From sequence record MN850597.1: a stretch of DNA of 64,000 nucleotides; one strand, 5' to 3'. The position numbers and the translations under genes are program-made. Position 1 is the stretch's first letter, and each line of letters opens with the position of its first letter. Source of the DNA: Escherichia phage isim. Shown here one piece after another: positions 2,825-13,200 of the stretch. Under the pieces are notes generated by a model. It saw nothing but the letters and a program-made list of their open reading frames with translations, made no database searches and was not told where the DNA came from.

Positions 2825-3097
2825 TTACTTACGGCGGCAGAATTCAAGCGTTTTTAATTGATAATCTTCCTCAGCCTGGAGTACAACCGCCTCGATCATT
2901 TCGTTGGCATTGTTGAAGCCATACCCTTTAGCGAACTCGTCCGCACCACCTTCGTGATCATGTTCTGCGTTCATCGCTTCCACAAAATGGAATTCCAAAT
3001 TGTTGAGGTAGGGGCTTGATGTGCCGTCTTCTTTTTCGATGAGATCCCAAATAGCATTAAAACGTGATTCGACTTCTTGATTAATCCAGCTTGACAT
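2825..3097 (-). CDS. hypothetical acidic early protein (90 aa)
   Basis: ORF; RBS GAGAGGA upstream. Confidence 0.6.
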   Translation of the reverse strand: MSSWINQEVESRFNAIWDLIEKEDGTSSPYLNNLEFHFVEAMNAEHDHEGGADEFAKGYGFNNANEMIEAVVLQAEEDYQLKTLEFCRRK

Positions 3098-3315
3098 AGT
3101 GTTTTCCTCTCTTCTGGTTGTTGTGTGGGCACCTTTGCCCCTTCAAGATAAATGTTACCCCACCCCCTGGCAGATGTCAACGGTTTTTATAGTTCTTATA
3201 TGACAGGCAGGCCTGGTGATTGTCTCCACCTGTTCCCAAGTGCCGCCCGTTTAATAAGAATAGCAAAAGGGGCCGAACAAGTCAACCCCAAAATCAGTAC
3301 CAAAACACTTTTTAT

Positions 3316-5497: not shown

Positions 5498-5782
5498 TTA
5501 TTTATTGATAGCGTGCAGCGGGAAAGCTACGCCAGGTTGATAAATAACCTTTACAACCTCATCAGGACAAAAGAAGTTGCAGAACTCACCGCAATAGGCC
5601 TCATCCTCTTTCAACTCTTCATCAACATACTCAAAAAAGTAGTCGATGCTTGGATAATCCTGGCCGTGATTATAGTCAACCATCGTTAATAATAACTCTT
5701 GATCATTCCGTAGGATGTGCATACCCGCTTTTAAGTATTTTGCTTCCATTTCTACTACATCGCCAGCGGTAACAATAGCCAT
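5498..5782 (-). CDS. hypothetical acidic protein (94 aa)
   Basis: ORF; RBS AGGAG. Confidence 0.6.
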   Translation of the reverse strand: MAIVTAGDVVEMEAKYLKAGMHILRNDQELLLTMVDYNHGQDYPSIDYFFEYVDEELKEDEAYCGEFCNFFCPDEVVKVIYQPGVAFPLHAINK

Positions 5783-5984
5783 GATTTTAACTCCTATCTA
5801 TCTGGTCAACGATTGGGGGCCTCCCCCTCGACAACTCTTATTATCCATATTGTCGGGAATGATGCAAGTACTTCTTTAAAAATTTTTTAAGCGCCCCGTA
5901 TGCCGTTGTAACGCCAAAATAATAAAGGCCATGCAACCGCATGGCCTTTATGTGATTATATTGCTGCAGGCCCTGCTAGGGGCC

Positions 5985-6335
5985 TTATTTTACATTCTTG
6001 CCTGTATTGCCGCCACGGTACCAGCGTTTGCGGTGAAAATGGTAATAATCACCCTCGGCATTAAACATCAGATGATTTTCAATAACCAGCTTACGAAGGT
6101 GGGCCGGATCTTGTTCCATTCTTGCCAGATTCCGGCGGCTGTTACGTAAGCGTATAAATTCCATATTCAGGCCGTTGATTGCAGCATGGATGTCAAAGTA
6201 ACCACCTTTGAGACGTTCACGCATGGCGTTAAGCTCAACACAATATACAGATTTCTCACAAATCAAGGTATTAGCTAGGGCGCGGACCTGGGCAAGGGGG
6301 TTAAGCTCATTAAGGTAATATAGTTTGACTTTCAT
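5985..6335 (-). CDS. hypothetical protein (116 aa)
   Basis: ORF in series; weak RBS. Confidence 0.5.
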   Translation of the reverse strand: MKVKLYYLNELNPLAQVRALANTLICEKSVYCVELNAMRERLKGGYFDIHAAINGLNMEFIRLRNSRRNLARMEQDPAHLRKLVIENHLMFNAEGDYYHFHRKRWYRGGNTGKNVK

Positions 6336-6352
6336 AAAATCGCCTGCTGAAA

Positions 6353-6661: not shown

Positions 6662-6696
6662 TCCTTGTTAACTGCGTGGTATTTTAACAGGGTTTA

Positions 6697-6745
6697 AATT
6701 TACTTTATCGATGGCCCTGAAGTCAAGGCCATCTAAAAATAAATT
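6697..6745 (-). promoter_or_regulatory. Conserved promoter/operator module copy 1: palindrome GATGGCC-N10-GGCCATC overlapping a -35 TTGACT, N18, -10 TAAATT
   Basis: About 48-bp near-identical sequence at three sites; sigma70-like hexamers on minus strand about 36 nt upstream of the 6661 start. Confidence 0.55.
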
Positions 6746-6946
6746 TTACAGGCCTACAATCTCTTTGATTCGTTTAACTGCTGCCTCAGCGCCTTGGGGG
6801 TAGAAATTATGATAACCAATCACGCGAGTGATACTAATCGCCGTTTGATGATCTTCATAGTCGCCCTTGAAGATTTCTTGACCGTCAATCAGCACGGCAA
6901 TTTTTTCTTCTTTTTTGAAGTTAATAACGCGGATATTGTTGCTCAT
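6746..6946 (-). CDS. hypothetical protein (66 aa)
   Basis: ORF; RBS AAAGGAG. Confidence 0.55.
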   Translation of the reverse strand: MSNNIRVINFKKEEKIAVLIDGQEIFKGDYEDHQTAISITRVIGYHNFYPQGAEAAVKRIKEIVGL

Positions 6947-7084
6947 TTTGTTTCTCCTTTCTGGTTTTTGTGGTGGTGGGGATTAGCTCCCCGTTGATTG
7001 TTATTATCCACATTCCGGACCGGATTGCAACACCCCGGAAGAAAAATTTTTTAAAAGATAGGCCCCCATGATCGGGGGCCGCTC

Positions 7085-7204
7085 TTAGTTACTTACAGCG
7101 ATAAAGTACATCCCTACGCCTAACAATATTTCAAGGGCGATAATCTCAAGCCATACCATAACACGGCGCACCTTATCAGCGCATGGCTTATCCTTGGTTG
7201 TCAT
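7085..7204 (-). CDS. small membrane peptide (39 aa, MTTKDKPCADKVRRVMVWLEIIALEILLGVGMYFIAVSN)
   Basis: Hand translation checked codon by codon; RBS GGAGGG upstream; hydrophobic C-terminal half. Confidence 0.4.
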   Translation of the reverse strand: MTTKDKPCADKVRRVMVWLEIIALEILLGVGMYFIAVSN

Positions 7205-7224
7205 CGTCTCCCCCTTCCCTCCTG

Positions 7225-7464
7225 TTAGTAGTGACGTGGTTTACAATGGCCCCCAGGAGTCCTATCACCACGCACACCACAAGAAAAATTATCTCCGCTG
7301 TTGTTCGATCCATTGTTATAAAATTCCTCAAGATCAGGCCTGAAAATAAAGCGTTCGTTATTGAATCCGTCACGCCAGGCGGCTGGCTTCAAATCTTCAC
7401 TAAAGGGATTAATTAACGTGGCGTTATTTAAACGGCTGGTCCACATATTTTCTATTCCTCTCAA
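7225..7464 (-). CDS. hypothetical protein (79 aa; frame and start uncertain)
   Basis: ORF with RBS GAGAGGAA; competes with an overlapping alternative-frame ORF (7188..7373). Confidence 0.3.
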   Translation of the reverse strand: MRGIENMWTSRLNNATLINPFSEDLKPAAWRDGFNNERFIFRPDLEEFYNNGSNNSGDNFSCGVRGDRTPGGHCKPRHY

Positions 7465-7795
7465 ATAGGCGATCCGCTTCAGTTAAACATATCTCATGGG
7501 CTTGGTCTCTGGTTTTAGCCTCATCAAAAACCTGTTGTGCCAGGCTGCAGCGTAGGGAGACTGGAAGATCACTATAATAGGCGTTGACAAACGTTTGTGC
7601 GTCATACAGGTCGGAAAACACTTTACCCTTTCTATTATCGCCCTTGTCAACAATTGCAAGGATAACCAATACAATAGTTGCAACCACTCCCAGGAAAATA
7701 GATATAACAAACCATAGAAAAGCGGATCTACCTATCTTGCCAGCGATCCAGGCGTTGAACAAGGCAACTACTACAGCCAAAATAATAAATTCCAT
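7424..7795 (-). CDS. membrane protein, two predicted TM helices (123 aa; start moved to MEFIIL)
   Basis: RBS AAGAGG before internal ATG at 7795; the longer ORF would overlap the upstream gene by 70 nt. Confidence 0.55.
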   Translation of the reverse strand: MEFIILAVVVALFNAWIAGKIGRSAFLWFVISIFLGVVATIVLVILAIVDKGDNRKGKVFSDLYDAQTFVNAYYSDLPVSLRCSLAQQVFDEAKTRDQAHEICLTEADRLFERNRKYVDQPFK

Positions 7796-7859
7796 TCTAT
7801 GTACCTCTTTTGCAGTTCTGTTTAACAATAAGGCGGCAAATATGCCGCCTGTTACCTGA

Positions 7860-8240
7860 TTAAAAATTATCGCCGTAAATCTTTCCGCTTTCTGCCCACA
7901 CCACCACGCGGGGCATGTTATCCCATACATCTTGTTTCAGATTTAACGCGTGCAATTCTTCGGTGGTGCTCATACCAGGCACGGGCTGATTGTATACTGC
8001 AAAACGACCACCTGCATAATCATAGGCCAGAGTTAAATCACACTGAATCATCTTTTTGATCATGGCGTTAAGCATAGCGTTAGCCGCATACTGGTCACGT
8101 TTTAAAGGCAACTCTTTGATTAGTTTGCGATAGTTTTCAATGTGATCGCACACTGTTTCACGTGGAAGATCTTTCATATCTTCACGGAATGTAACCAGGT
8201 TAAACATAACGGTGTCAATAGCTTTAGTAGTGTTTTTCAT
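7860..8240 (-). CDS. hypothetical protein (126 aa)
   Basis: ORF; RBS AAGAGGAA. Confidence 0.6.
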   Translation of the reverse strand: MKNTTKAIDTVMFNLVTFREDMKDLPRETVCDHIENYRKLIKELPLKRDQYAANAMLNAMIKKMIQCDLTLAYDYAGGRFAVYNQPVPGMSTTEELHALNLKQDVWDNMPRVVVWAESGKIYGDNF

Positions 8241-8294
8241 GATGTTTTCCTCTTTGTTTTGTGTGGGGGCAAACGTCTTGCCCCCTTGAGTTTT

Positions 8295-8322
8295 AATATA
8301 GCAGGTTTTTAGGTTATTGCAA
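8295..8322 (-). promoter_or_regulatory. sigma70-like promoter (-35 TTGCAA, N16, -10 TATATT) followed by 5' hairpin GGGGGCAAGACGTTTGCCCCC
   Basis: Hexamers read on minus strand; hairpin sits between the -10 and the RBS of the 7860..8240 gene. Confidence 0.5.
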
Positions 8323-8330
8323 CACTTTAT

Positions 8331-8954
8331 TTATGAAAAAGTCATCTCACCATATTCATCGACATCAAACCGCCAATCATTGGCCTCGATAAGGCCGATC
8401 AGGTTTTCTGCGGCGAACTGTTCTAGATAGGCCTCCTCCAGGTCTACGTAAACCTTGCGGGATAGCTCCCGTACCGTCTCGGTGATCAGTTCTTCCAGGT
8501 CTTCCACTTTGTTTTCTTGTTTGGCGGTCAGGTCTAGCCATGTAGTATCGATGTACCCGCTTACAGTGTTTTCGTGACTATAACGGCTATATGGATCACG
8601 CTCAACACTTGCGGATAGCTCGCCATCGTGCATTGTGCCGAACAAGTGACGAATTGAGCGGAATTTAGTCAGAGACTTGACTTTACGCAAGAATTTTTCT
8701 AAATCCACGTTTTCCGCACTGATTGATGCGCCGTCGCCCTGGCACCAAAAGCCGGACCAATGTACTTCGGTATCTTCAAGGCCATACTCTGGAAAGATAT
8801 ATTCTTTATAGTCTTCAATTACACTTTCTGCAAAAAAGTTATCCCCGCTGTGTTCTTCTCTTTCGCGGACCATTTCAACGGCTTTTTCTTTTTGTTCGTC
8901 GGTCAGCACGTCGAAAGCTAAATTGTAACCTGTGGTAATGTTAACGGTGGTCAT
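8331..8954 (-). CDS. hypothetical acidic protein (207 aa)
   Basis: ORF with RBS GGAGAA; preceded by consensus promoter. Confidence 0.65.
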   Translation of the reverse strand: MTTVNITTGYNLAFDVLTDEQKEKAVEMVREREEHSGDNFFAESVIEDYKEYIFPEYGLEDTEVHWSGFWCQGDGASISAENVDLEKFLRKVKSLTKFRSIRHLFGTMHDGELSASVERDPYSRYSHENTVSGYIDTTWLDLTAKQENKVEDLEELITETVRELSRKVYVDLEEAYLEQFAAENLIGLIEANDWRFDVDEYGEMTFS

Positions 8955-9011
8955 GATATTTTCTCCTGTTTTCTTTGTTAGTGGCGGGAAGTTTTCCCGC
9001 CTGTGTGTTTA

Positions 9012-9039
9012 ATTATACTTATTGAGATTTACTTGTCAA
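9012..9039 (-). promoter_or_regulatory. Near-consensus sigma70 promoter (-35 TTGACA, N16, -10 TATAAT) followed by 5' hairpin GGCGGGAAAACTTCCCGCC
   Basis: Plus 9034-9039 tgtcaa and 9012-9017 attata read TTGACA/TATAAT on minus; hairpin at 8985-9003 lies before the RBS of the 8954 start. Confidence 0.6.
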
Positions 9040-9289
9040 CACTATTTTTTAAATTATTGTGGCGCAAAATGTTTAAAATCTCCTCAACGTCATCAACACG
9101 GCGGCAATTTTTAAACGCTACCAATTGCCCCATGATTTTAATCACTGGGCGGCCTTGCCAGTGCCCCTGAAGAAAGCGCGCTTTGACTTTATCGGTGGAA
9201 CTATCACGCCACCAAATAGCCTTGTTGTTGCAGTAGTAAAAATTATTCAGGATAACATCAACTTTATCAAAATTTTTTAATTTACGCAT
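9029..9289 (-). CDS. hypothetical protein (86 aa)
   Basis: ORF; RBS AAAGGAG. Confidence 0.55.
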   Translation of the reverse strand: MRKLKNFDKVDVILNNFYYCNNKAIWWRDSSTDKVKARFLQGHWQGRPVIKIMGQLVAFKNCRRVDDVEEILNILRHNNLKNSVDK

Positions 9290-9506
9290 GGCGTTTACTC
9301 CTTTCTCTCTTTGATGTGGTTAGTATAGCTAACCTGTTGACGATGTCAATGATATTTTTAACGCCATAAAACGGCCCTGGGCGATGTTTTCAGGTTAAAG
9401 GGGCGATTGCATAGGTGGGGGCCTTTTTGGCGCTTACAGGGCCAACCAGGGGCGCTATTCGTAGGATAGAAATAAAAAGCCCCGCACAATGGCGGGGCGT
9501 TGGTTG

Positions 9507-9704
9507 CTATTTGTCTTTGTGGCGGTATCGTTCCGCTTGTCGTTCACGTTCCAAAAGTAGGCCCGGCAATTTACGATCATAATGATTCCGCCAGATCTTC
9601 CCAAACCTTTTTGGCTTATTCAGTTTATTGTTACGCTGGCGGCGTTCTGGCAGCTCTTCGGAATCATGAGGGCGCTTTACAATTTTCTCGAAATTAATTT
9701 TCAT
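9507..9704 (-). CDS. small basic protein (about 65 aa; start uncertain)
   Basis: Lys/Arg-rich ORF; internal ATG at 9704 preferred. Confidence 0.4.
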   Translation of the reverse strand: MKINFEKIVKRPHDSEELPERRQRNNKLNKPKRFGKIWRNHYDRKLPGLLLERERQAERYRHKDK

Positions 9705-10047
9705 ATATTCCCCCCTTGCTAACTTCAATATTGGCCTGAATAGCCCGGATACGGCGCTTTATAACTTCCTGATCTGTGTGGTCGTATCCCCAAAAGTCTA
9801 CAATTTTTGCGCCCCCCGCCTCCAGGCGGTATAGTGTTTCCTGCATTTTGTAAGCCGGGATCGGTCGCGGTGTTACTTGGTCACCTTCTTTATTTTTATA
9901 CTTTATAATATAATCTTCGTTATCGTTGAATGCCCAAAATGGATATTCTGCAAGGGCGGTACTTCCTCTTTCCTTTTTATCCTGGATCTTATTTACAATT
10001 AAAGCCGTAGCAATAGCGCCAATGATAAAACTAGCCCCGCTGATCAT
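9694..10047 (-). CDS. N-terminally membrane-anchored protein (117 aa)
   Basis: N-terminal hydrophobic helix MISGASFIIGAIATALIV; RBS AAAGGAG. Confidence 0.55.
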   Translation of the reverse strand: MISGASFIIGAIATALIVNKIQDKKERGSTALAEYPFWAFNDNEDYIIKYKNKEGDQVTPRPIPAYKMQETLYRLEAGGAKIVDFWGYDHTDQEVIKRRIRAIQANIEVSKGGIYEN

Positions 10048-10121
10048 GTACTTTCTCCTTTCATGGTGTTAATAAATTATCTTTATAGATGGCCCTGCAG
10101 CCAGGACCACCGAAAAAATAA

Positions 10122-10367
10122 CTATTTCACAATGCCTACAAAACAGATCCCGCCTTCACCTATATAAGCAATATCGGTCACTTTATAACTTGTCAAGATC
10201 TGTTTATTCAGTTCATTAATAAAATCGGTCATTGCGTTGGTGTAGTTGTCTTCCGTGTCTAAGGCATAATCCCAGGTGTACACCTTTTTACGTCCGAAGC
10301 CTTTTACCATGATACGGGCGCTTTTGGTGTTGGTAGGGGCATAATATTTGGTGATTAGTGCTGCCAT
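10122..10367 (-). CDS. hypothetical protein (81 aa)
   Basis: ORF; RBS AGAGGAG; preceded by palindromic promoter module copy 2. Confidence 0.55.
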   Translation of the reverse strand: MAALITKYYAPTNTKSARIMVKGFGRKKVYTWDYALDTEDNYTNAMTDFINELNKQILTSYKVTDIAYIGEGGICFVGIVK

Positions 10368-10407
10368 GGTTTTAACTCCTCTGTATTGGTTAAGTGTTAA
10401 CAGTCTA

Positions 10408-10456
10408 AAGTTTACTTTATTGATGGCCCTGAAGTCAAGGCCATCTAAAAATAAAT
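10408..10456 (-). promoter_or_regulatory. Conserved promoter/operator module copy 2 (-35 TTGACT, N18, -10 TAAACT inside the GATGGCC/GGCCATC palindrome)
   Basis: Same 48-bp element as 6697-6745; about 40 nt upstream of the 10367 start. Confidence 0.55.
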
Positions 10457-10798
10457 TTACTCGTTTTCTTCCAGTTCTGCAAGCTCTTCTTTCACTTCTT
10501 CCAGCTCTGTCTGCAATTCTTGGTACTCTTCATCGTCCTCAATATCCAGGCTGTCGATGTAGTCGCTAAATCCGCAGCGGTAAGCGATAGGATCTAGCTC
10601 CTTGAGGATACGCGACGGAAGAAAAGAAATGTTTCCGATCATAATTTCGCCGTAGATCTCGTCTAACCATTCATCATAGTTTTCGTCGTACTTGTCCTCG
10701 TCGATTTCAAAGTTATCGATCTTATTCTCAAGGTCTGCGATCTGTTTTTTCAGGGCAGCGATCTGAATAGCTTTTTCTGCGGCGGTCATAGTGGTCAT
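10457..10798 (-). CDS. acidic coiled-coil protein (113 aa)
   Basis: ORF rich in E/D with heptad-like segments; RBS present. Confidence 0.55.
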   Translation of the reverse strand: MTTMTAAEKAIQIAALKKQIADLENKIDNFEIDEDKYDENYDEWLDEIYGEIMIGNISFLPSRILKELDPIAYRCGFSDYIDSLDIEDDEEYQELQTELEEVKEELAELEENE

Positions 10799-11027
10799 GG
10801 TGTTTTCTCCTTTTGTGTGTTCTGGGAAGTTTTCCCGTTGATGTGTTTAGTATACCGATCTAAGTTAGCTTGTCAATTAAAAGTTTAAGAAAAATTTTGC
10901 GACACCGTTGGCGCTACCCATCAACATTTGCGCCAGGATATAACCAATGATGCAAACGATAATAGTTACCTTTGTGTGCTGGCGTGTAGTGCTCATCTTC
11001 AAGCCTCCTTTTAGCTTAACTGGGATT

Positions 11028-11076
11028 AGTTTACTTTATTGATGGCCCTGGCGTCAAGGCCATCTAAAAATAAACT
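11028..11076 (-). promoter_or_regulatory. Conserved promoter/operator module copy 3 (-35 TTGACG, N18, -10 TAAACT)
   Basis: Third copy with one substitution in the palindrome (ctggcgtc vs ctgaagtc). Confidence 0.5.
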
Positions 11077-11471
11077 CAGTAAGTTTTCAGTACTTTCCCG
11101 TCCAACCTGTCTAACTGAATCTCAATAGCTGCAGAAAACCTATTGTAAACCACATCGCCCAGGGAGTCCAGCCAATCTATGACGTTATACACCTGCTCTT
11201 TATTCTTGCAAGTCCGGATCCGTTTCATTACGTAAGACGGATCAATATTAGTACTCCCGTTGTTGTGGTCATGCGCCTGGCCTGCTGCACTGGTTATAGA
11301 TTTTACAACCACCTGAAAGGGCTTTAAGGTGCCTTTTGCGTTCATCTCACGCGCTTTTGCGGCGCGGTTGTTATATGTTACACAACGGCGGCAAATGTTG
11401 AATAAATGCATGTCAATAATTTTTTCATCGTTTGCCAGTTCGTTCATGATGCGGCGTACGTTCTTATTCAT
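11076..11471 (-). CDS. hypothetical protein (131 aa)
   Basis: ORF with RBS; upstream 5' hairpin GGCGGGAAACATCCCGCC. Confidence 0.6.
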   Translation of the reverse strand: MNKNVRRIMNELANDEKIIDMHLFNICRRCVTYNNRAAKAREMNAKGTLKPFQVVVKSITSAAGQAHDHNNGSTNIDPSYVMKRIRTCKNKEQVYNVIDWLDSLGDVVYNRFSAAIEIQLDRLDGKVLKTY

Positions 11472-11516
11472 AGCTTTTCCTCTGTGTTGGCGGGATGTTT
11501 CCCGCCTTTTGTGTCT

Positions 11517-11544
11517 AGTTTACTTGAATTTTGCAGCGTGTCAA
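11517..11544 (-). promoter_or_regulatory. sigma70-like promoter (-35 TTGACA, N16, -10 TAAACT)
   Basis: Hexamers read on minus strand upstream of the 11471 start. Confidence 0.45.
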
Positions 11545-12900: not shown

Positions 12901-13059
12901 AGAACTCCTCGCATTTAATAAATTTAATTAGCACGCTAATTACCCTCCGTAACAATTTCCTATAAAATAGTCTCCACTAAAATATTCCCATATAGAAATT
13001 TTAAAAATCCATTTCTGAAAACGAAAAATCGATTTCGTCCCCAAAAATTTCAGGTCGAG

Positions 13060-13200
13060 AGCCGGAACGATTTCCAGAAAATCCGATTCAGAAAACGAAA
13101 AACAGATCGAGTACTGAGAAATTTATCGAGAAAAATTTTCAGAAAATCCAAGCCATGAAATGAAAAGTAGATCGAGTACTGGAAAAATTGTACCGCAACT
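13060..13200. repeat. AT-rich tandem direct repeats (about 52-bp unit: CAGAAAATCC ... GAAAA ... AGATCGAGTACTG ... GAAA)
   Basis: Two near-complete copies plus a partial copy; no ORF. Confidence 0.5.

Follow-up and report, generated by a model that had tools for sequence, protein, structure and literature searches.

A candidate hairpin and promoter cassette between small early genes of the rV5-like Escherichia phage isim

Introduction

Promoter-early stem-loops (PeSLs) are intergenic cassettes that stretch from the stop codon of one gene to the start of the next, combine an early promoter with an overlapping stem-loop, and are associated with ORFan-rich regions and with the junctions of insertions and deletions (PMC2839356, PMC4122927). 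They have been described in the T4-like phages RB49/phi1, PST/T4 and nt-1/KVP40 (Arbiol et al. 2010, PMC2839356; Comeau et al. 2014, PMC4122927). The present work concerns an intergenic element of Escherichia phage isim (sequence record MN850597.1), analysed in a stretch of 64,000 nucleotides that is referred to below as the window. A first-pass annotation of this DNA had described the element as a 48-bp palindromic promoter/operator module repeated three times in the early region. Judged by its sequence, the element appears to come closest to the PeSLs among the kinds described so far, and it displays all the PeSL features that can be tested in this way. A literature search found no paper describing such elements, or linking PeSLs, in rV5-like phages.

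Another intergenic structure suitable for comparison is the processing site of RNase III. Substrates of this enzyme comprise about two helical turns of double-stranded RNA, an internal loop can limit cleavage to one strand, and a single cut by the E. coli enzyme leaves a protective 3' hairpin (PMC1540722). All copies of the isim element that were folded have a matching shape, with 11 + 10 bp and a 2x3 internal loop. It is proposed here, with moderate confidence, that the element is a composite intergenic cassette made up of an RNA hairpin and a sigma-70 promoter, which separates small early ORFans of an rV5-like phage.

Results

Copies and folded structure of the element

Between positions 6000 and 12000, the window matches about 120 GenBank phages at 90–98% identity, with Escherichia phage AlexBoehm as the best match (98.4%). 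The matching phages are rV5-like Vequintaviruses of about 135 kb, and the window likewise comes from an rV5-like Vequintavirus. Since the minus strand carries every credible gene from 5.5 to 13 kb, the element must be read on that strand.

The three copies reported at 6697-6745, 10408-10456 and 11028-11076 do exist. A 45-nt consensus matches the window at 6699-6743 (1 mismatch), 10411-10455 (0 mismatches) and 11030-11074 (2 mismatches), and none of 100 shuffled sequences contained it. The inverted repeat GATGGCC-N10-GGCCATC proved perfect in all three copies (c1, c2 and c3) in a palindrome scan, and allowing two mismatches gave four matches against 0.15 expected. Equally well founded are the minus-strand motifs of c1–c3, namely TTGACT or TTGACG followed after an 18-nt spacer by TAAACT or TAAATT, and the orientation and distance to the downstream genes, whose start codons lie 31 nt (c3), 41 nt (c2) and 44 nt (c1) after the -10. 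The extent of the module needs correction in two respects. The repeat unit measures about 58 nt, starting at the upstream gene's stop codon and extending through the -10 region, and a fourth, diverged copy (c4) is present at 10070-10127. The modules are listed below with their parts.

11023..11080, minus strand, c3, whole module: TGA of the 131-aa open reading frame (ORF) 11078-11076; 5' arm GATGGCC 11064-11058; -35 TTGACG 11057-11052; 3' arm GGCCATC 11047-11041; -10 TAAACT 11033-11028; next ATG 10996 (39-aa ORF)
10404..10461, minus strand, c2, whole module: TAA of the 113-aa ORF 10459-10457; 5' arm 10445-10439; -35 TTGACT 10438-10433; 3' arm 10428-10422; -10 TAAACT 10414-10409; next ATG 10367 (81-aa ORF)
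10070..10127, minus strand, c4, hairpin-only variant missed by the first-pass annotation: TAG of the 81-aa ORF 10124-10122; 5' arm GGTGGTC 10111-10105; apical CTGGCTGCAG without a -35; 3' arm GGCCATC 10094-10088; hexamer ATAATT 10080-10075; next ATG 10047 (117-aa ORF)
6692..6749, minus strand, c1, whole module: TAA of the 66-aa ORF 6748-6746; 5' arm 6733-6727; -35 TTGACT 6726-6721; 3' arm 6716-6710; -10 TAAATT 6702-6697; next ATG 6652 (99-aa ORF)

The covariance model, run with filters off, detected no copies beyond these four in the 64-kb window. Its scores ranged from 71 to 79 bits on the minus strand and from 30 to 45 bits on the plus strand; individual values were 78.9 vs 42.8 bits for c3, 78.2 vs 40.6 bits for c2 and 78.4 vs 44.8 bits for c1, and c4 reached 71 bits.

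All four copies fold into the same architecture as sense (minus-strand) RNA. The 7-bp dyad with a 10-nt loop described at first is thereby replaced by a 10-bp stem with a tetraloop, standing on an 11-bp outer stem. The lower stem is A/U-rich (e.g. AAAUUUAUUUU / AAAGUAAAUUU) and includes one invariant U·G pair, the upper stem is GC-rich (GAUGGCCUUG / CAGGGCCAUC) with a U·G pair at position 8, and a conserved 2x3 internal loop (UA / nAU) separates the two. The apical tetraloop of the window copies reads ACNN. The stop codon of the upstream gene lies within the 5' strand of the lower stem and the -10 hexamer within its 3' strand, and the -35 is placed in the 5' half of the apex.

Sense folds of the four copies have free energies of -22 to -27 kcal/mol with z-scores of -4.6 to -5.9 (c3, -27.4 kcal/mol, z -5.9; c2, -22.4 kcal/mol, z -4.9; c1, -26.3 kcal/mol, z -5.2; c4, -26.5 kcal/mol, z -4.6). 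Folding the antisense strand gives less stable structures, of -18 to -20 kcal/mol, and of only -11.5 kcal/mol (z -0.3) for c4. The antisense fold of c4 is so weak because two of its upper-stem pairs are G·U. Through these two pairs the hairpin of c4 is retained, even though its -35 has been lost.

The genes flanking the copies are all ORFans. None of the eight flanking proteins has a Pfam domain scoring above threshold, and no function is known for any of their PHROGs. The element has no counterpart among 5,426 E. coli genomes, on which ground a host-derived repeat of the repetitive extragenic palindromic (REP) type was rejected. Additionally, no known RNA family matched at the elements in Rfam at E-values up to 1.

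Conservation of pairing and placement

The element is present in 120 phage records, most of them with three detected places each. For comparison among close relatives, the region was taken from 13 GenBank relatives and four IMG/VR contigs, yielding 30 distinct element variants, from which the covariance model was built. The same model was used to find diverged copies, and the wider comparison covers 56 distinct copies, both close and diverged, the latter from uncultivated phage contigs of 130-141 kb. A palindrome-only scan of IMG/VR returned about 120 unrelated chance matches and one true relative; as it was uninformative, more specific flank patterns and one metagenome scan were needed to reach the diverged contigs. 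Their copies score 37-57 bits, and their early-region DNA is otherwise almost unalignable to that of GenBank phages. As a separate observation on the records, seventeen GenBank entries named 'Campylobacter phage' (15 with C. jejuni as host) are 93-98% identical to the E. coli Vequintavirus region, probably because the isolates were mislabelled or were contaminants.

Among the 30 close-relative variants, the 14 arm bases of c1–c3 and the motif TTGAC are invariant, and the two or three loop bases that follow TTGAC vary freely. The proportion of paired cells is 96.5% on the sense strand vs 85.4% on the antisense strand, and sliding the 3' partners by 1-3 columns lowers pairing to 35-56%. Four lower-stem pairs have changed on both sides, amounting to 26 cells vs 8.9 in shuffles. 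The 56 copies give a similar picture, with 94.4% of cells paired on the sense strand vs 87.4% on the antisense strand, and with imperfections that comprise 98 G·U vs 27 A·C cells on the sense strand. Covarying pairs in this larger set are L5, L6, L8, L9, L11 and U6. Furthermore, five diverged copies were folded, and all have the same two-stem architecture, the sense strand being the more stable in four of them.

The arms GATGGCC/GGCCATC and the flanks TTTTA/nATAAAG are kept across the 56 copies, including the clade whose surroundings are unalignable, with an arm-to-arm distance of 7, 10, 11, 14, 15 or 22 nt. The placement of the element is equally regular. A stop triplet lies 11-13 nt on the 5' side of the 5' arm in 56/56 copies, the next Shine-Dalgarno (SD) sequence and ATG follow 24-45 nt past the end of the element in all of them, and the element is always on the gene strand.

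Many copies also carry the Dcm motif CCWGG at the junction of arm and apex, as CCAGG in c3 (11041-11064) and as CCTGG in c4 (10088-10111) and in most diverged copies (contigs L137, L138 and L148-L156); c1 and c2 of the window are without it. The motif may merely follow from GGCC adjoining CAG/CTG.

A putative optional promoter on a constant hairpin

The first-pass annotation had suggested a set of co-regulated promoters under one dimeric factor. The promoter half of this suggestion is plausible in silico, owing to the spacing of the hexamers and the invariant TTGAC, and the operator half is not supported, given the variable arm spacing and the copies that are hairpin only. The distance from -35 to -10 is fixed at 17 nt in the diverged clade and at 18 nt in Vequintavirus, with an apex of 10, 14, 15 or 22 nt. 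The -35 takes the form TTGACA, TCGACA or TTGACn in these copies, and the promoters of the diverged copies read TTGACA-17-TAAACT or TAACCT. Every copy with a -35 also has a hexamer beginning with TA (TAAACT, TAAATT, TAACCT or TAAACC), and copies without a -35 show ATAACT, GTAACT, GCAGTT or AAAACT at that position. A T-rich tract precedes the promoter, and a promoter with identical hexamers, predicted by the PhagePromoter software, is annotated in the GenBank record of phage Gotham. Because the spacing is constant, the -35 co-occurs with a TA-initial hexamer and c4 is hairpin only, the hairpin would be the constant core of the module and the -35 an optional feature that makes it a promoter, as in c1–c3 and not in c4.

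Element-bounded gain, loss and transfer of genes

Two intervals between neighbouring copies of the element vary as cassettes among related phages.

10469..11027, minus strand, variable cassette c3-c2: 39-aa ORF, consensus promoter TTGACA-16-TATACT at 10876-10849, hairpin in the 5' untranslated region (UTR), 113-aa ORF
10118..10414, minus strand, variable cassette c2-c4: 81-aa ORF

Phages ECP32 and magaca lack exactly the c3-c2 interval and retain a single hybrid c3/c2 element; IMGVR contig 2051223002 also has a hybrid c3/c2 element, with unmapped breakpoints. On their 5' side, the hybrids correspond to three distinct alleles of c3 (ACTAAG, ATTGAG and ACTGAG), which suggests that hybrid c3/c2 elements arose in more than one event. 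Similarly, 241Ecol014PP is without exactly the c2-c4 interval and keeps one hybrid c2/c4 element. In the diverged clade, contig L150 is without an ORF that L138 has between two copies. Transfer over a longer distance is seen in phage KKE7M (PQ356295, Justusliebigvirus, Stephanstirmvirinae), in which positions 5583-6050 correspond to 10877-10411 of the window at 95.5% identity. The shared segment comprises promoter, 113-aa gene and element, with homology stopping at the -10 of the element, and its sequence indicates a recent exchange of early ORFans between subfamilies. Thus, there are three classes of element-bounded gene gain or loss and one inter-subfamily transfer. KKE7M also shares several other short patches with the window at 77-92% identity.

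With near-identical copies on either side of each gene, reaching from a stop codon into the 5' UTR, recombination can proceed cassette by cassette, and comparison of the related phages shows whole gene cassettes that recombination between copies has evidently deleted, inserted or moved. In 241Ecol014PP the crossover lies inside ATAAAG; in L150 it falls between TTGACACC and GGCCATC. As the crossover points differ between events, ordinary short-homology recombination fits better than a fixed site. Loop variants are often common to c2 and c3 of one genome and differ between genomes, which suggests gene conversion. Not every rearrangement in the region uses the element, since the deletion in rV5_ev146 (window 11482-10985) is not bounded by it.

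Two further polymorphisms were seen near c1. A 116-aa ORF (5985-6335; region 5995-6345) is absent from rV5 and V18, and this indel is not element-bounded. The 5' UTR downstream of c1 occurs as two alleles that diverge right after CCCTGTTAAAATA.

Comparison with described systems

Like the PeSLs, the copies of the element span the distance from a stop triplet to a point upstream of the next SD/ATG, both in the four window copies and in all 56 copies. The element also shares with them a sigma-70-type early promoter preceded by AT-rich DNA, with c4 and several diverged copies lacking the -35, and a stable stem-loop that overlaps the promoter, here with z-scores of about -5. Moreover, it sits among small ORFans, where indels and replacements between close relatives end in cassettes. 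However, the two have no sequence relation, and the host group of the element is the Vequintavirinae. In contrast to PeSLs, the stop codon marks the start of a single long hairpin in two parts, which contains the whole promoter, the element is without a U-tract and so is probably no terminator, and hairpin copies without a promoter belong to the family. There are four copies of the element per genome, whereas PeSLs number in the dozens.

The early intergenic hairpins R0.3, R0.5, R1, R1.1 and R1.3 of phage T7, which are established RNase III sites (Dunn and Studier 1983), fold with the layout of the element; the RefSeq T7 record NC_001604 does not annotate them as such sites. In both phages, repeated intercistronic hairpins stand in early transcripts of the host polymerase. 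In each, a GC-rich upper stem of 9-10 bp is capped by a short loop and joined through an asymmetric internal loop to an A/U-rich lower stem, into which the stop codon of the preceding gene falls. The stem sequence is kept among copies, and the apex varies. They differ in that cleavage of the element is predicted by shape only, that the T7 hairpins contain no promoter, and that the sequences are not similar. In T7, two minor E. coli promoters, B (1514) and C (3113), are annotated in or next to the RNase III-hairpin intergenic regions 1429-1499 and 3097-3174, a loose parallel to a promoter that shares its space with a processing hairpin.

In integrons, an attC site likewise follows the cassette ORF immediately on its 3' side. 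It is an imperfect palindrome, conserved towards the ends and variable in the middle, folds better on one strand, and bounds cassettes that are gained or lost. Unlike attC, the element comes with no integrase and lacks both a conserved crossover point and an R/L box consensus, and homologous exchange between near-identical copies would explain the junctions seen.

Discussion

In the proposed composite cassette, the hairpin would form in read-through RNA coming from upstream promoters and would act on the 3' end of the upstream cistron. By analogy with T7, it would most likely be an RNase III-type processing and protection site, at which a single cut leaves the upper hairpin as a 3' cap. This role is favoured because the interrupted hairpin of two turns matches the shape of RNase III substrates and because the T7 hairpins fold alike. 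In c1–c3, the same DNA would also carry a sigma-70 promoter, with an apical -35 and the -10 located 18 bp further on, that restarts transcription for the downstream gene, and c4 would serve as a hairpin without a promoter.

Several points weigh against this account. The RNase III step is a guess made from the architecture only. Taken by themselves, the hexamers match the consensus weakly, at 9 of 12 positions with an 18-nt spacer, and 26 matches of this strength were found vs 15.7 expected in shuffles. Neither the 33 promoters of the rV5 genome paper nor its terminator table includes the element, and the literature search found no Vequintavirus study that maps the ends, cleavage sites or start sites of transcripts. 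The two strands differ only moderately: of the five diverged copies, one folds slightly better as antisense, and the outer lower stem contains A·C cells among the 56 copies. Independent compensatory events are few, because the copies are paralogues and orthologues of one another. Additionally, the conservation of the arms GATGGCC/GGCCATC and of TTTTA/ATAAAG where the flanks are unalignable points to a factor that would recognise this sequence specifically.

The terminator function of a strict PeSL, in which the hairpin would be a factor-independent terminator or attenuator of the upstream gene fused to an early promoter, is an unlikely alternative. Its position directly after the stop codon and the GC-rich stem would suit such a role, and in RB49/phi1 one stem-loop cut read-through like a strong terminator (PMC2839356). 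However, an intrinsic terminator is unlikely because no copy carries a U-tract: AAUAAAGUAAA follows the hairpin in sense orientation and UAAAAAUAAA in antisense orientation, and a U-tract is absent from 56/56 copies. A terminator scan as well as the annotations of EdH4, Alma and rV5 skip the element though canonical U-tract terminators exist nearby, and the covarying A/U lower stem is not needed for a terminator. The possibility that the elements are terminators of the upstream genes, which would have overturned the promoter module as first described, is thus not borne out. Very unlikely, too, is the double-stranded operator of the first-pass annotation, according to which a dimeric phage or host regulator occupies GATGGCC-N10-GGCCATC across the -35 and jointly controls three early promoters. 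The perfect, sequence-conserved inverted repeats that straddle the -35 in three copies speak for it, as does the conservation of arm sequence, beyond pairing, even in diverged relatives. An operator of this kind would consist of two half-sites at fixed spacing on B-DNA, linked to a promoter, but the dyad of the element lies in a 21-bp interrupted hairpin with compensatory changes, and its arms stand 7, 10, 11, 14, 15 or 22 nt apart, a range that a B-form dimer cannot accommodate. Furthermore, the hairpin-only copies have no promoter to regulate, a dimer site in B-DNA would select neither for G·U imperfections on one strand nor for covariation in the flanking lower stem, and no DNA-binding protein is recognisable among the neighbouring genes.

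It is hardly probable that the element is a functionless repeat, that is, a duplicated intergenic segment held similar by gene conversion, with promoter-like hexamers arising by chance. The loop variants shared by c2 and c3 within a genome point to conversion, and hexamer matches of this strength are common in shuffles, but arms and lower-stem pairing persist where the surrounding DNA has almost no similarity to known phages, and the compensatory changes, the constant distance from -35 to -10 and the fixed placement at stop codons would call for another explanation. A structure acting at the DNA level, with a folded single strand or cruciform serving structure-specific recombination or nuclease activity and with cassette exchange as its main, attC-like role, is highly improbable. 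It would account for an element at the 3' end of each cassette from the stop codon on, for an imperfect palindrome with conserved arms, a variable centre and strand-asymmetric pairing, for indels bounded by elements, and for the single gene that moved with its element into another subfamily. However, crossover points vary from one event to another, and the nearby rV5_ev146 deletion does not end in an element. We know of no recombinase in these virulent phages. Very little credence can likewise be given to a gene-cassette junction that a phage factor would recognise as a folded strand, whether RNA or single-stranded DNA, much as attC is recognised by structure. In its favour are the arms kept amid unalignable flanks, the variable palindrome centre, the strand-biased pairing, the element-bounded cassettes and the KKE7M transfer; what tells against it is that crossover points shift between events and that no recombinase is known. 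If such junctions were real, the rV5-like early region would be an array of ORFan cassettes, each with its own stop-codon hairpin and promoter, whose ORFans would be captured, lost and passed between phage subfamilies.

If the composite hairpin and promoter cassette is correct, composite regulatory cassettes that drive modular gene shuffling would extend past the T4-like phages, so far the sole group in which they are described, to unrelated large virulent coliphages, which are in wide use in collections for therapy and biocontrol. It offers a concrete unit for the punctuation of early transcripts and the swapping of ORFans, consisting of a stop codon in a conserved hairpin, an optional apical -35, and a -10 on the 3' side of the lower stem. 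It also draws the attention of annotators to four intergenic sites in each genome that are blank in current records.

Other repeats near the element

A second repeat family occurs on the minus strand in the form of GC-rich, GGCGGGAAAACTTCCCGCC-like hairpins at 8974-9011, 10812-10849 and 11480-11517. Each immediately follows the -10 of a near-consensus promoter (TTGACA-16-TATAAT/TATACT/TAAACT; 9039-9012, 10876-10849 and 11544-11517); the hairpin would therefore sit at the very 5' end of the transcript, which it may help to stabilise. Together with the 113-aa gene cassette, the copy at 10812-10849 has moved into KKE7M. Finally, positions 12991-13189, which may correspond to a box marked 'non-coding' on the published rV5 genome map, hold a tandem array of three diverged repeats, each about 65-74 bp long, with many GAAAA/TTTC motifs. 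The repeats also appear in blast self-matches and are possibly iterons or an origin.

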